Shown here in pieces: positions 28,136 to 57,487 of a stretch of 64,000 bases of DNA (positions within the stretch are counted from its first letter, which is position 1; every line of letters begins with the position of its first letter). The stretch lies in the IMG/VR virus record IMGVR_UViG_3300047311_000323, positions 96,001 to 160,000 of that record; one strand, given 5' to 3'. Both the position numbers and the translations under genes were made by a program. The DNA comes from a virus. Under the pieces are notes generated by a model. It ran no database searches and was not told the origin of the DNA. It saw only the letters and a program-made list of their open reading frames with translations.

Positions 28136-28144
28136 TATATATCA
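28136..28144 (-). promoter_or_regulatory. TGATATATA recurrent motif
   Basis: Exact copy 9 nt before ATG 28126. Confidence 0.45.
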
Positions 28145-48832: not shown

Positions 48833-48907
48833 TGGTATCCCCGGTTGGACTCGAACCAACATAAGCCGCCTTAGGAGTGCGGTGCCCATCCCTTGGACCA
48901 CGGGGAC
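48833..48907 (-). tRNA. tRNA-Arg(CCT)
   Basis: Cloverleaf GTCCCCG...CGGGGAT-A-CCA; anticodon loop CTCCTAA; T-loop TTCGAGT. Confidence 0.9.
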
Positions 48908-50789: not shown

Positions 50790-50798
50790 TATATATCA
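50790..50798 (-). promoter_or_regulatory. TGATATATA recurrent motif
   Basis: Exact copy 6 nt before ATG 50783. Confidence 0.45.
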
Positions 50799-51054: not shown

Positions 51055-52065
51055 TCAACTTAATGCCATCATCCTATCAATGGATATTCTGGCTTGGTTC
51101 ATTAATTCTTCTGACATATTGATCTGCGGTGTCAGGTCTCTCAAAGAGAGATATACCTTCTCCAAGGTATTCTTCTTCATGAACGGACACTCGTTGCACG
51201 CACAACTTGCTTCAGGCGGTGCAGGAATGAAAATCTTATCTGGAGCGGCCTTCTGCATTTGATGCAAAATACCTGCTTCTGTTGCTACAATGAATTCTTT
51301 GTTTGGACTGCTGACAGCATATTTGAGAATGCCAGTCGTCGATCCAATGAAGTCTGCCATCTTCAAGATAGGTTCTTCACATTCGGGGTGAGCCAAAACT
51401 AGTGCATTAGGATTACGAGTCTTGATACCAATCAGTTTGCGCTCACTGAATGTCTCATGAACGATGCAGGCTCCTTGCCACATGATCATAGGGATGCCAG
51501 TTTTCTTCATGATATAGTTGCCAAGATTTCTATCTGGAGCAAAGAGAATCTCCTTGCCAGACTTGGCAGCTTCACGAACAATCTTTTCTGCATTGGATGA
51601 CGTACAAATGTAATCTGACAATGCTTTGACTTCAGCCGAACAGTTGATGTAACTGACTACCACTGAATTGGGGTGCATGCTCTTCCAAGCGGCGAATTTA
51701 TCAGCAGGGCAACCATCTGCCAGAGAACAACCAGCTTCCAAGTCAGGAAGGACTACAGTTTTCTGAGGGGAGAGGATCTTGGCTGTCTCAGCCATAAAGT
51801 GCACGCCAGCAAAACAGATAACATCAGCATTAGTCTTTGCAGCTTCTTGGGAGAGTTGTAAGGAATCTCCGATGAAGTCAGCAACATCTTGAATTTCAGA
51901 ATCCTGATAGTAGTGGGCCAAGATAACGGCATTGCGTTCTTTTTTGAGGAAAGCAATTCTCTCTTCAATGTCGAAGATCGATAGTCCGTCATACGTGCCA
52001 TCAGCCTGGGCCTTACGTTTCGCTTCTTTGAATTCACTTGCTGAGAAAATAGGTAGTTTATTCAT
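51055..52065 (-). CDS. nadA: quinolinate synthase NadA
   Basis: [50 protein letters not shown] and C.CNECPFMK. Confidence 0.96.
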
Positions 52066-52231: not shown

Positions 52232-52305
52232 TGGCTCCCGCAGAGGGGCTCGAACCCCCTTCTTCCGTTTTAGAGACGGCGCTCTACCAGTTGAGCTATG
52301 CGAGA
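52232..52305 (-). tRNA. amber suppressor tRNA (anticodon CTA) no. 2
   Basis: Acceptor TCTCGCA/TGCGGGA, G73, encoded CCA; anticodon arm CCGT-CTCTAAA-ACGG; T-loop TTCGAGC. Confidence 0.88.
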
Positions 52306-52919: not shown

Positions 52920-53142
52920 CGTCGTCTTCCTCGGCCCCTCTTTTCATAAGGGCATTCAATTCTTCACGTGGAATATCGGGCCAATTATCAGGTCTTCCAT
53001 CTTTAGGAAGTGGGAAAATAGCTCCAGCCTCTTTATCATGGAAAATGCAAAGCAATCCTGCTTTACCTTCATGAACATAAACGCCAGTGGGCATACCACA
53101 AAAACATTCAGGCCCACGCTCTTTATCAATCCATTGACTCAT
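52903..53142 (-). CDS. hypothetical protein with CFC...CIFH metal-binding pattern
   Basis: 79-aa ORF overlapping both neighbours. Confidence 0.6.
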   Translation of the reverse strand: MSQWIDKERGPECFCGMPTGVYVHEGKAGLLCIFHDKEAGAIFPLPKDGRPDNWPDIPREELNALMKRGAEEDDDEQEG

Positions 53143-53489
53143 TTTCCACCTCTCAAAGCTAGGGGCAATCGGCTACAAAGCTTTTTAGACTTAGGACCGG
53201 GAGCCAAAGCAATCGCCGTAATCTGATTATCAATATCAGGCTCTCTGAATACAGAAAAACTAATATCATGGAACGTAGCCTGTTTCGCTAAGTCCATCAG
53301 TTCCTGCTCATCAGTCACTGACAACAATCCAAGGTAATTGGATTGCTCAAACCACAACTTATCAATCTCCGGATGATCTGCCGTAAACTGACGCAAAGCA
53401 TGCATGCTTTGAACTGCTTGATATCCTGGTTCCAAATCTGCACGAGTAATAACATAAAGCTTGTCGCCTTCTTTAACCTATAGACACAT
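53139..53489 (-). CDS. Pth2-like peptidyl-tRNA hydrolase with in-frame TAG at codon 4 (read-through required)
   Basis: GGAGA SD then ATG TGT CTA TAG GTT AAA GAA GGC GAC AAG...; KLYVITRADL.PG.QA.Q..HA, V.DE.EL and EPD...ITAIALAP...L..LPL Pth2-type motifs. Confidence 0.75.
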
Positions 53490-54069
53490 GATTATCTCCA
53501 AATAGTTTGCGGCAAATTGCTTTACCGCGCTTGTTAATTTGACTCCACTTAATCTTGAATGATTCAGATTCAATGCCGCCAAACATCTTTGCATTGCTAT
53601 GCACCTCAGCTAGCCCGGCCAACAACAATGTCGTTGCCTCTCGGTGCTGACAAAACTCATCTACGTCTACTGCCTTCATGGTATGAATCTTCATATCATG
53701 CAGAATGAGTTTAGCAATAGTCTTATTAGAACTAATCCTCAGCCATGTCTGATAAGACATCCAAGGATGGTTAGGGAAATGTCTACGACCCCGTTCATCA
53801 ACAGTTAGACAGTAGGGCTTGCCGCAATCATGAAAGACTGCGTAACCCGCAATAATATCGTCTGGAAGCAAGGAGGCTAACAACTGCTCTCGATACTCAC
53901 TCATCCAGTCGGGTAATCTCCAACCTTCGCCTATCTGGCCGGTTTTCAAAAATGAAATCAATTCAAAAATGTGCTCTTTAACAGAGACGCCGTGTTGGTA
54001 CACGGATTGGCTATCCGTTTGGGGACAGCTTTGCATATCAGAAATTAAACGATTCTATAGGTAACTCAT
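53473..54069 (-). CDS. HD-domain phosphohydrolase with in-frame TAG at codon 5 (read-through likely)
   Basis: ATG AGT TAC CTA TAG AAT CGT TTA ATT TCT GAT ATG...; H...HDCGKP....HFPNH, like the HD domains of tRNA nucleotidyltransferases; track start 54036 is the downstream alternative. Confidence 0.72.
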
Positions 54070-54076
54070 AGTGCTT

Positions 54077-54085
54077 TATATATCC
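54077..54085 (-). promoter_or_regulatory. GGATATATA recurrent motif
   Basis: Near-exact copy 7 nt before ATG 54069. Confidence 0.45.
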
Positions 54086-55142: not shown

Positions 55143-55494
55143 TGGTGGAGATGCAGGGTACTGCCCCCTGGTCCGCGATATGCCCTTATCAAAACTCATT
55201 CACAAACTTAGTTGATATTAGCGTCATCAACAACGCTGCAAGAATTTGCTCCGGCTGGCTATCTACTGTTAATCTTGTTGTTGAACATCGTAGCCCTGTT
55301 CATCAACCAGCTTTGTGGGTTGGCGTTCCTTTGATTACTCAAGCAGTCTTATCTGGGAACGAATGGTGCCGTTAGGCGGCCATTGCAAATGCATTATCGT
55401 TTGCATTTATACGTCAATTGCTTTTAGAGGGGCAATCATCCTCTGTTTGCGTCATTCTGATAACTCGTTACCACGTCGAATCTATGTCATCCCC
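55143..55494 (-). ncRNA. ssrA: tmRNA, one-piece; tag peptide (A)ANDNAFAMAA
   Basis: 5' GGGGATGAC...GATTCGAC; 3' CAGGG-GGCAGTA-CCCTG-CATCTCC-A-CCA with G3-U70; tag ORF 55372-55404 GCA AAC GAT AAT GCA TTT GCA ATG GCC GCC TAA. Confidence 0.95.
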
Positions 55495-55501
55495 ATAAAT
55501 G

Positions 55502-55524
55502 AAAAATCCCACGAGGTGTGGGAT
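55502..55524 (-). terminator. hairpin plus T-tract between the tRNA-Thr cluster and tmRNA
   Basis: ATCCCAC/GTGGGAT 7-bp stem followed by TTTT on the minus strand. Confidence 0.5.
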
Positions 55525-55597
55525 GGAGCTAATGATGAGAATCGAACTCATGTAGCTGCGTTACGAGTGCAGCGTAATACCACTATACTACATTAGC
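55524..55597 (-). tRNA. tRNA-Thr(CGT)
   Basis: GCTAATG...CATTAGC-T-CCA; loop CTCGTAA. Confidence 0.9.
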
Positions 55598-55600
55598 GTG

Positions 55601-55675
55601 TGGAGCTGATTGTGGGAATTGAACCCTCATTTCCGCGTTACTAGGGCGGAGTAATAGCCGTTATACTAAATCAGC
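55601..55675 (-). tRNA. tRNA-Thr(AGT)
   Basis: GCTGATT...AATCAGC-T-CCA; loop CTAGTAA. Confidence 0.88.
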
Positions 55676-55678
55676 TTA

Positions 55679-55753
55679 TGGAGCCCAAGTCGAGAGTCGA
55701 ACTCGATTTTCGTCTTTACCAAAGACGGGTAATAACCGTTATACTACGTGGGC
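55679..55753 (-). tRNA. tRNA-Thr(GGT)
   Basis: GCCCACG...CTTGGGC-T-CCA; arm CGTCT-TTGGTAA-AGACG. Confidence 0.9.
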
Positions 55754-55762
55754 TTATCGGTT

Positions 55763-55836
55763 TGGAGCTGATGCCGAGAATCGAACTCGGTTCTCCTCGT
55801 TACAAGGGAGGAATAATACCATTATACTAAATCAGC
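55763..55836 (-). tRNA. tRNA-Thr(TGT)
   Basis: GCTGATT...CATCAGC-T-CCA; loop CTTGTAA. Confidence 0.9.
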
Positions 55837-56041: not shown

Positions 56042-56830
56042 TCACCGACCAAAGCTTTCTTGTCTAAAGATATCTGCACCATTCTTAAAGATGTTAGATA
56101 GGAAGGATTGATCTTTGGTAAAGATTGGTGGCTCCAAATTGAGATGCCACTTGTTCCTCATTGATTCTCCTGAGACAATAGGAACTTTGTAGGCAGCAGC
56201 CCCTCTCCTGAAAGAAACTGGATAGTCGTTGAAGTTGATATCCACTTCCTGATGGAGCAAATCAACCTTCTCATCCACACTCAACCCAGCCATCATCTCT
56301 TTGATATTGTTCTTATCGTATTTCTTGATAAGTTCATACAAGCAAGCAGACTGAATTGAAGTATGGAAGTTCTGCTGTTGTTTGTAAATAATGGTATTGA
56401 CCGCCTCACCAAGAGTTGGCACAGCGAATACTTGAGAGGTAAAGATTGGGGCGCCAGTTACATTAAGACCAATTTTATCTGCGACTTCATTGAAATGCAT
56501 GGTGGCAGTAGCCGAAGTAACTGAGCAAATCTTTTGCAGTTTGTTGTCATACCAAGGACTGGTATCATTGTTCTGGTCGTTACGAGCCACAATAACAATC
56601 TCGTCATTGTGCTGGTAGGCAAAGAGGGAGCCCTCTACCTCTTGGCAAAGTTTTAGAGTTGTGGAAAGAATGCACTCGGCAAATTTTGGACAATAGGGCT
56701 TGTCAAGCAACTGGGTAATTTTAGAGAAACCTCGCCCGTTGACGCAGATAATGATTGGTACTCGGTCGAGTAACCTGTAGTCGGTGACCGATTGGTATCG
56801 TTCAACGCGGTCTTTCAATTTGTTTGACAT
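56042..56830 (-). CDS. tRNA-His guanylyltransferase (Thg1/TLP) family protein with degenerate first metal-binding Asp
   Basis: RVPIIICVNGRGFSK.T..L.KPY, AYQHNDEI, W..NKLQKI.SV.SA and RRG. Confidence 0.82.
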   Translation of the reverse strand: MSNKLKDRVERYQSVTDYRLLDRVPIIICVNGRGFSKITQLLDKPYCPKFAECILSTTLKLCQEVEGSLFAYQHNDEIVIVARNDQNNDTSPWYDNKLQKICSVTSATATMHFNEVADKIGLNVTGAPIFTSQVFAVPTLGEAVNTIIYKQQQNFHTSIQSACLYELIKKYDKNNIKEMMAGLSVDEKVDLLHQEVDINFNDYPVSFRRGAAAYKVPIVSGESMRNKWHLNLEPPIFTKDQSFLSNIFKNGADIFRQESFGR

Positions 56831-56845
56831 AATAACGAATATAAC

Positions 56846-57472
56846 TTAACGTGGTTGTTGTGGCTGTACTGGATTGTATTGAGCCAATTGTCTTAACGTA
56901 TTGGAAATATTATCCTTTATGTTACCAGGCATTTTTTGTGCCACCGGACCAGTTGGGCTTAATTGGCTTAGATTTAGATAAGGTTGTGATTGAAGGGTAG
57001 CAGCATTCCATGCTGCAATCTGATTTCCAGTTACTTTTTGAGGGAATTGATTGCCGCCATTCAAATAGGATTGGTAAATCAATTTGGACAGATTAAGTAG
57101 GTTTTTAGCGTCTACTGAGGATTCTCCGCTAGGATCTACGTTAAAGTTATTGTTCTTGAGAGTTTGCCAGTTATGCTTGCCCTCACTAGAATAATGTAGG
57201 GCCGTATTGAGTAGCCTTGCCAGACTGTCTATAAAGCCGACGCTAGCCGAATTGTATACATTGCCCATCCATCCCCAGGCCCCAGAGGCAGTAAAGGCTG
57301 GCGGAGGCGGTATAACGGCCTGTGTGGTTGACGTAGGGGTGGTTGGAGTAGTTGGTGATGGTTGAGTAGTCGGGGAGGCAGGAGAAGCCGGAGAAGCTGG
57401 AGACGCAGGTGCGCCTGGAACAGCTTGTGCCAATTTAGCCAGATATCTCAAACGTAACTTCAAGGGTAACAT
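56846..57472 (-). CDS. hypothetical protein with PAS/PTT low-complexity repeat
   Basis: 208-aa ORF; start context ATG-TAG-ATG. Confidence 0.7.
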   Translation of the reverse strand: MLPLKLRLRYLAKLAQAVPGAPASPASPASPASPTTQPSPTTPTTPTSTTQAVIPPPPAFTASGAWGWMGNVYNSASVGFIDSLARLLNTALHYSSEGKHNWQTLKNNNFNVDPSGESSVDAKNLLNLSKLIYQSYLNGGNQFPQKVTGNQIAAWNAATLQSQPYLNLSQLSPTGPVAQKMPGNIKDNISNTLRQLAQYNPVQPQQPR

Positions 57473-57487
57473 CTACATAATACTATT

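Follow-up and report, generated by a model that had tools for sequence, protein, structure and literature searches.

Here, we describe two overlapping genes on the minus strand of a 64,000-nucleotide stretch of viral DNA (positions 96,001 to 160,000 of IMG/VR record IMGVR_UViG_3300047311_000323, called the window below), in which an in-frame TAG follows the start codon after only a few codons. The window is part of a single virus record of 198,396 bp, and no close relative of it was found among deposited phages. One gene encodes an HD-domain protein, the other a PTH2-like protein, and two tRNA genes with the anticodon CUA, denoted tRNA(CUA), lie downstream on the same strand. The early TAG is called the gate codon in the following. 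The features concerned are:

53473-54069, minus strand: HD-domain gene, CCA-enzyme-type HD phosphohydrolase (phrog_14850), 198 codons with the gate codon, stop codon TAA at 53475-53473
54058-54069, minus strand: leader of the HD gene, four codons ATG AGT TAC CTA (M-S-Y-L), read directly
54055-54057, minus strand: gate codon TAG of the HD gene (codon 5), next base A
54077-54084, minus strand: GATATATA motif, 7 nucleotides upstream of ATG 54069, with strand bias and a spacing kept in relatives
53139-53489, minus strand: PTH2-like gene (Pfam PF01981; Pth2 fold), 116 codons with the gate codon, overlapping the end of the HD gene
53478-53480, minus strand: gate codon TAG of the PTH2-like gene (codon 4), next base G
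53496-53499, minus strand: GGAG Shine-Dalgarno sequence, 6 nucleotides upstream of ATG 53489, read directly
52232-52305, minus strand: tRNA(CUA) no. 2, Trp-type body with U1-A72, G73, encoded CCA and anticodon loop CUCUAAA
50813-50887, minus strand: tRNA(CUA) no. 1, with G1-C72, A73, no encoded CCA and anticodon loop CUCUAAA

Read on the minus strand, the HD gene begins with ATG (54069-54067), AGT TAC CTA and TAG (54057-54055), followed by AAT CGT TTA ATT TCT GAT, a second ATG (54036-54034) and CAA. As a first-pass annotation of this DNA had stated, the upstream ATG and the TAG are in frame with the HD open reading frame (ORF), which has 187 codons. The PTH2-like gene begins with ATG (53489-53487), TGT CTA, TAG (53480-53478) and GTT AAA GAA, again in frame with its ORF; the first canonical start in this ORF is TTG 53435, and none lies between the TAG and the conserved residues. 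The GATATATA motif in front of the HD gene occurs 10 times on the coding strand versus 2 times on the other strand of the genome (sites at 54077-54084, 50790-50797, 28136-28143 and seven more), and in most sites an ATG lies 2-10 nucleotides downstream. The same annotation had seen one geometry at 54069, 50783 and 28126, which holds approximately only, the spacing from motif to ATG being 7, 6 and 9 nucleotides, respectively. At the HD gene the 7-nucleotide spacing is retained in the related loci L008, L009, L012 and L014 with differing spacer sequences. Possibly, the motif is a -10-like promoter element that would give rise to a leaderless or near-leaderless mRNA.

This arrangement is widely distributed. 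Non-redundant genes that show the pattern of ATG, one to five variable codons and TAG, in frame and directly before the conserved protein, number 17 in the HD and 29 in the PTH2-like family and come from cultured phages, huge uncultured phages and IMG/VR contigs. Among the IMG/VR loci an in-frame ATG with one to four codons and TAG is present in all 21 PTH2-like loci (21/21) and in 15 of 18 HD loci. The huge uncultured phages with a start-proximal TAG are LR745206 (both genes), LR756500, LR756501, LR756502 and LR756504, and cultured carriers are:

XacN1: HD-PTH2 fusion, ATG AAG TAG
Xoo-sp13: HD-PTH2 fusion, ATG AAG AAG TAG
RAS14: HD-PTH2 fusion, ATG AAG TAG, no nearby internal ATG
RsoM2USA: HD and PTH2-like genes, a TAG in each
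pT24: PTH2-HD fusion, ATG AAA TAG
ME3: PTH2-like gene, ATG ACT TAG
Arash: PTH2-like gene, ATG CTG TAG
fHe-Yen9-04: PTH2-like gene, ATG TCT CAC TAG

The protein identity of the TAG-carrying genes to the query goes down to about 35-50%, and across both families the gate codon is situated at codon 3-6. Downstream of the TAG the sequence is fully conserved as protein; upstream there is a leader of one to five codons in which only the ATG is conserved. The leader peptides are unrelated in sequence, and those of the HD genes differ in length as well (MSYL, MSHL, MSDYL, MSL, MP, ML, MKKT, MK and others). In a control scan over the coding strand of 31 non-identical loci (360 kb), 47 of the 52 TAG patterns were located at HD or PTH2-like starts versus none of the TAA (0/15) and none of the TGA patterns (0/16). 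Of the 46 gate TAGs, 45 precede a purine (next base A 39, G 6, C 1, T 0). Such a 3' purine is said to favour amber suppression, reportedly a finding of Bossi in 1983 and of Miller and Albertini in 1983. The first-pass annotation had argued that CTA-TAG in two adjacent genes is unlikely to be due to chance. As far as the shared start-proximal TAG is concerned, conservation and control scan bear this out, but the stress laid on the hexamer was misplaced, since the codon preceding the TAG varies widely across the family and outside the close clade only TAG and not CTATAG is kept. The hexamer, which occurs 8 times in the window versus 12.6 times expected, was rejected as a functional element, being neither enriched nor conserved.

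Two further groups of phages extend this distribution. In GAP32, XbC2 and fHe-Yen9-04 an in-frame TAG is found at codon 47 of the HD gene, which it divides into two annotated ORFs; this is an independent position occupied again by TAG and therefore favours read-through over re-initiation. In Bxz1 and Pier the PTH2-like gp154 is preceded by TTGACA, 18 nucleotides, TAC(T/C)GT, 6 nucleotides and ATG TAG GTG, and the PTH2-like gene of Phabba starts with GTG TAG GTG. As gated genes the cluster C mycobacteriophage cases are suggestive only, because translation could start at the GTG that follows the TAG.

Owing to the gate codon, genes of this type are mis-annotated in public records of well-known phages in a systematic manner, i.e. 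truncated to an internal start, split at the TAG or left unannotated. The records concerned (with our locus numbers) are XacN1 ORF364 (L047), Xoo-sp13_327 (L053), RAS14 (L048), pT24 BPT24_235 (L002), ME3_195 (L004), Arash gp84c (L151), RsoM2USA (L001), fHe-Yen9-04 g408/g409 (L049), GAP32_398/399 (L050) and Atu_ph07 AUZ95035 (L149).

Judged from the alignments, the codons from the TAG to the first canonical start are under purifying selection, with invariant Leu, Ile, Gly, Asp, Lys and Tyr. In the HD family the stretch between the TAG and ATG 54036 (N-R-L-I-S-D) shows L3, I4 and the following M7 invariant or nearly so, and between genomes invariant residues undergo synonymous changes (Leu TTA/CTA/TTG/CTC; Gly GGC/GGT/GGA; Lys AAG/AAA). 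The HD homologues that lack the TAG (ME3, L023, L025) run on as ordinary protein across this region. No canonical start is present between the stop codon (TAG or TGA) and the conserved residues in the PTH2-like gene of the window, in RAS14 and in Atu_ph07, the last being the TGA case discussed below.

The predicted structures agree with an extended N-terminus. Against Pfam PF01981 the PTH2-like protein scores 29.8 bits (cut-off 23), with a match that starts at residue 10 of the extended protein, and the family profile aligns solved Pth2 enzymes end to end (2zv3_A with an expectation value (E) of 7e-8), whereby KLYVITR is aligned to residue 2 of the 2zv3_A chain. Its AlphaFold model has a predicted local distance difference test score (pLDDT) of 95.9, and the first beta-strand comprises residues 6-12 after the TAG (pLDDT 96). 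A start at TTG 53435 would mean that this strand is lost. Foldseek comparison of the model with archaeal and human Pth2 gives template modelling (TM) scores of 0.76-0.79 (E 3e-7). Despite a Pfam score above the cut-off and this similarity of fold, the phage protein differs from Pth2 in that the archaeal segments GKGK and DAGHT are replaced by PGY--QAV and EPDIDNQ in the sequence alignment to 2zv3_A. The residues invariant in the phage family (R12, D14, H26, E79, D81, Q85, T87) differ from the archaeal set.

The model of the HD protein (pLDDT 93.6) has a helix that comprises residues 2-9 after the TAG, with a block pLDDT of 97. Structurally, this protein comes closest to the HD region of the class-II tRNA nucleotidyltransferase 3wfo_A (residues 253-448), with Z 13.4 and a root-mean-square deviation of 2.9 A over 155 residues. 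Second in rank is an entry with Z 10.1, generic HD hydrolases follow at about Z 10 or below, and HD-fold matches overall span Z 8-13. Foldseek ranks the same tRNA nucleotidyltransferase entries first (E 6e-3), and the tRNA-binding HD domains of the beta-subunit of GlyRS are among the structural matches too. A weak profile match (E 0.04) to the tRNA nucleotidyltransferase HD domain aligns FHDxGKP...G..F..H. The pattern HDxGKP...HF.NH had earlier been likened to these HD domains, a resemblance that is supported at the level of the fold. The invariant residues of the family (H21, H75-D76, H92, H96, D120, H124, H152) correspond to the H...HD...D motifs of the all-helical HD fold. In Pfam the HD protein of the window alone stays below threshold with no significant family, and 2 of 14 family members match PF01966 (E 0.0012). 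The phage protein shares with the class-II tRNA nucleotidyltransferase HD domain the motif HDxGKP...G..F..H and the closest fold, but it is a stand-alone protein of 190 residues without the nucleotidyltransferase head. On the basis of these models the HD protein might be active in tRNA 3'-end repair, and tRNA 3'-ends would be the substrates of both enzymes. Most likely the HD and PTH2-like domains act together, because they are fused in XacN1, Xoo-sp13 and RAS14 (HD then PTH2) and in pT24 (PTH2 then HD).

The initial proposal that the HD gene is translated from ATG 54069 through the TAG is supported by the conserved residues behind the TAG, the confidently modelled helix, the TAG-less homologues and RAS14. 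In the aligned homologues the codons between the TAG and ATG 54036 are conserved as protein.

Both tRNA(CUA) genes of the window are located at most 3.3 kb downstream of the HD and PTH2-like genes. Their scores against the Rfam tRNA model are 59.7 and 49.2 bits (gathering score 29). By similarity only, no. 2 is of the Trp type and no. 1 of the Sup/Lys/Trp type, the latter being closest to the suppressor tRNAs of XacN1 and RAS14; the label tRNA-Pyl assigned by ARAGORN is based on nothing but the anticodon. In nearly all IMG/VR loci one or two tRNA(CUA) genes are found within a few kb of the module, and every cultured phage examined has one (RAS14, GAP32, Xoo-sp13, ME3, Arash, pT24, Bxz1, Pier, XacN1 and RsoM2USA, the last two according to their papers). 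Crude pattern matching revealed no tRNA(CUA) in five phage records; with the Rfam tRNA model and, after it, ARAGORN, one each was detected in GAP32 (2.2 kb downstream of the HD gene), Xoo-sp13 and pT24, where it is one of only four tRNA genes. In Bxz1 and Pier the tRNA(CUA) lies 250-300 bp downstream of gp154. The anticodon loop CUCUAAA is present in 34 of 42 distinct tRNA(CUA) sequences, and the acceptor stems differ. Two genes are labelled otherwise in their records, namely as tRNA-Phe in Arash (L151:674-748; OQ632216:49176-49247) and as tRNA-Arg(tct) in Phabba (L156:1365-1435); ARAGORN identifies both as tRNA(CUA).

Atu_ph07, which encodes an opal (UCA) suppressor (PMC6102473), offers a cross-check. 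Upstream of one of its copies of the PTH2-like gene an in-frame ATG ATT GGC GAA CAC TTT TGA is present (about 198981-199001 in MF403008), so that the gate codon TGA matches the anticodon of the UCA suppressor. Since a search for IMG/VR relatives of this gene returned only the phage itself, the cross-check comprises one genome. An HD homologue was not found in Atu_ph07.

The genome of the window is not wholesale-recoded, because four genes end in TAG and no other gene with an in-frame TAG flanked by coding sequence was found in the genome (a codon-score scan gave antisense frames only). These four credible TAG-terminated genes represent about 2% of about 200. In three of them (ends 35536, 39732 and 54563, minus strand) TAG-NNN-TAA provides a back-up stop; this fits a tolerance of amber read-through and is suggestive, the background of close stops being 25-32% and the number of genes too small for significance. 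Within the genome there is no enrichment of TAG in the pattern of ATG, at most six codons, a stop codon and an ORF of at least 60 codons (TAG 26, TAA 23, TGA 32). This means that the significance of the gate codons follows from their conservation in relatives and not from within-genome statistics. Other candidates were rejected. ATG TAG ATG at 57478, ahead of the gene at 56846-57472, was considered as a third gated gene and is not conserved in relatives. Of six other start-proximal TAG candidates on the minus strand five turned out to be alternative frames within longer genes, and the sixth (window 84612) is in the overlap with an upstream gene, before a gene with a normal start.

Taken together, we regard it as probable that tRNA(CUA) decodes the early UAG and would thereby gate a two-enzyme module of tRNA 3'-end maintenance, as far as comparative sequence data allow such a conclusion. 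Each of the two genes would be translated from an ATG located 2-4 codons upstream of the in-frame UAG, and full-length protein would be obtained only if the UAG is decoded by the phage amber-suppressor tRNA(CUA), the presumed decoder. Without suppression release factor 1 (RF1) would end translation after a peptide of 3 or 4 residues. In this way the UAG would tie the output of the two tRNA 3'-end enzymes to the presence and activity of the suppressor tRNA in competition with RF1 of the host. One of these enzymes is an ester hydrolase with the Pth2 fold, the other an HD phosphohydrolase like those fused to CCA-adding enzymes. The residue inserted via tRNA no. 2 would most likely be Gln or Trp. 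An early position makes the cheapest gate, because only a peptide of 2-5 residues is wasted. Very tentatively, the gate might serve as a feed-forward interlock or timer, by which the enzymes appear only after the phage tRNAs have been matured and charged. A sensor of RF1 versus suppressor as in prfB, a feedback loop in which the enzymes act on the suppressor tRNA or a dosage limiter are possible as well.

Alternatively, the beginning of each gene could be a start-stop minigene, in which translation terminates at the UAG and the same ribosome re-initiates at an adjacent or nearby codon, tRNA(CUA) being irrelevant. Very short ORFs are known to regulate downstream translation, and minigenes have been linked to peptidyl-tRNA drop-off and Pth, which we count in favour of this possibility. 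Of the 29 PTH2-like genes, 17 continue with ATT behind the TAG and 3 with ATC, GTG occupies this place in Bxz1, Pier and Phabba, and the HD genes have a conserved Met 6-7 codons downstream. Nevertheless, we judge re-initiation unlikely. In HD genes the TAG is mostly followed by AAC, AAT, ACC, CTT or AAA and in several PTH2-like genes by GTT (as in this phage), GTA, ACG or AAC, none of which are starts, and changes from ATT to GTT preserve a hydrophobic residue but not the start potential. Re-initiation does not need the stop to be TAG, yet in the control loci it is always TAG and never TAA or TGA. Neither can it work with the TAG at codon 47 of the GAP32-type HD genes, and it leaves unexplained both the tight linkage to tRNA(CUA) and the pairing of TGA with a UCA suppressor in Atu_ph07.

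A genome-wide reassignment of TAG to Gln (code 15), as in crAss-like, Lak and further recoded phages, would turn the TAGs into ordinary early sense codons. According to the preprint of Borges et al., suppressor tRNAs and a depletion of TAG terminators are typical of recoded phages as well as of phages closely related to them, the low share of TAG terminators in this genome fits, and some of the huge-phage relatives may be recoded. Such a code is very improbable here, as only these two genes contain a flanked in-frame TAG and four credible genes end with TAG. Unlike scattered sense use, the TAG is fixed at codons 3-6 of the same two families across distant genomes, nearly all such patterns in the 31 loci belong to HD or PTH2-like genes, and the authors of the XacN1 study report no other read-through targets. 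It is hardly conceivable that the TAGs are inactivating mutations or artefacts of annotation or assembly, the genes being pseudogenes or starting downstream (at ATG 54036 and TTG 53435). Downstream starts or split genes are indeed found in many public records, but the same feature occurs in dozens of independent assemblies and in cultured phages, purifying selection acts on both sides of the TAG with an ATG always 1-5 codons upstream, and the downstream starts remove conserved, structured elements.

Several points weigh against decoding of the UAG by tRNA(CUA) as a gate. No TAG is present in the PTH2 gene of L021 or in the HD gene of ME3, Arash, L023 and L025; the partner gene carries it in all of them but L023, whose adjacent PTH2-like sequence appears degenerate. 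The counts do not represent independent events, since many loci are related to each other. Even without suppression, the internal ATG 54036 of the HD gene could yield a protein that is only a little shorter; in many PTH2-like genes the TAG is directly followed by ATT, which is rarely used as a start codon, and in Bxz1-type phages by GTG, at which some initiation may occur. Moreover, the anticodon stem of tRNA no. 1 is weak, and the CCA is not encoded in its gene. Since GKGK and DAGHT of Pth2 are not conserved, the chemistry of the PTH2-like protein may differ from that of archaeal Pth2. The evidence for read-through itself is comparative and not direct, and any benefit of the gating logic is hypothetical.

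Amber suppression by phage tRNAs and recoding of stop codons are already known (Borges et al. preprint). The authors of the XacN1 paper could not find the targets of their suppressor tRNAs, and those of the RsoM2USA paper could only speculate about them. In the literature covered, which is incomplete and leaves novelty unproven, we came across no report of a gate that is conserved, specific to PTH2 and HD genes, close to their starts and linked to the suppressor gene. In phages recoded to code 15 or 4 (Ivanova 2014, Borges et al. 2021/2022, Peters 2022) a phage tRNA(CUA) decodes in-frame TAG in a standard-code host, as is proposed here, TAG is likewise depleted as terminator, and a regulatory role of recoding was proposed. 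There, however, many genes (mostly late, structural and lysis genes) contain scattered stops, whereas here the code is otherwise standard and the TAG is found in one small module, at codons 3-6 and linked to the tRNA gene, across unrelated phage lineages. The autoregulated translation-factor genes prfB (+1 frameshift at an in-frame UGA) and infC (AUU start) also use an early recoding signal that reports the state of translation; here the reported state would be RF1 versus suppressor tRNA at the early UAG. In contrast with prfB and infC no frameshift is involved, the sensor would be a dedicated tRNA gene and not the product, and feedback by HD or PTH2 is hypothetical. The same logic, in which mRNA and suppressor tRNA are both needed and an early gate limits waste, underlies synthetic feed-forward gates with suppressor tRNAs (e.g. 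PMC7969014, where amber codons close to the gene start are combined with an inducible suppressor tRNA), of which the phage gate would be a natural, conserved counterpart. The bar minigenes of lambda, finally, are likewise phage ORFs of 2-4 codons ending in a stop and tied to peptidyl-tRNA hydrolase. They are free-standing and toxic in pth-deficient hosts, whereas the phage mini-ORF is in frame and continuous with the hydrolase gene and ends always in TAG near a tRNA(CUA).

We lean slightly towards a wider interpretation, according to which a three-part module of amber-suppressor tRNA, UAG-gated PTH2-like and HD genes is present in many large phages with standard code and the tRNA would act as key or sensor of tRNA maturation, charging or RF1 that controls tRNA maintenance or counter-defence. 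If true, the targets of the "orphan" suppressor tRNAs in jumbo phages and cluster C mycobacteriophages would be leaders of 2-5 codons that gene callers never annotated, and the module would be a natural, conserved, tRNA-gated translational switch in standard-code phages, different from wholesale recoding, in which a tRNA does not expand decoding. It would tie together a recurrent "translation-maintenance island" of large phages (tRNAs, tmRNA, Thg1-like, PTH2-like and HD genes) and link suppressor tRNAs with tRNA 3'-end chemistry, which may bear on anti-phage defences that target tRNAs. Culturable phages such as Bxz1 (in M. smegmatis), GAP32, Arash, XacN1 and pT24 make this testable.

In the vicinity of the two genes the following features were identified:

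55143-55494, minus strand: phage transfer-messenger RNA (tmRNA; Rfam RF00023, 100.6 bits), in the same place in relatives, adjoining the tRNA-Thr cluster
56042-56830, minus strand: gene for a Thg1-like tRNA-His guanylyltransferase / 3'-5' polymerase (PF04446, E 4e-18)
51055-52065, minus strand: quinolinate synthase NadA in full length (Pfam E 7e-122), flanked by the tRNA(CUA) genes no. 1 and no. 2

With the Thg1-like gene a tRNA 5'-end function is brought to the same island. Four tRNA-Thr genes, an M23 peptidase gene and an HNH endonuclease gene are also located nearby. The tRNA set of the whole genome consists only of four tRNA-Thr covering all four anticodons, four tRNA-Arg (CCU, UCG, ACG, UCU), two tRNA-Glu and the two tRNA(CUA). 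Besides the two suppressor genes, the positions concerned are 55524-55836 and 48833-48907 of the window and, outside it, 197341-198397 of the genome. Such a narrow and complete set suggests that whole isoacceptor families are replaced and not that codon usage is tuned.

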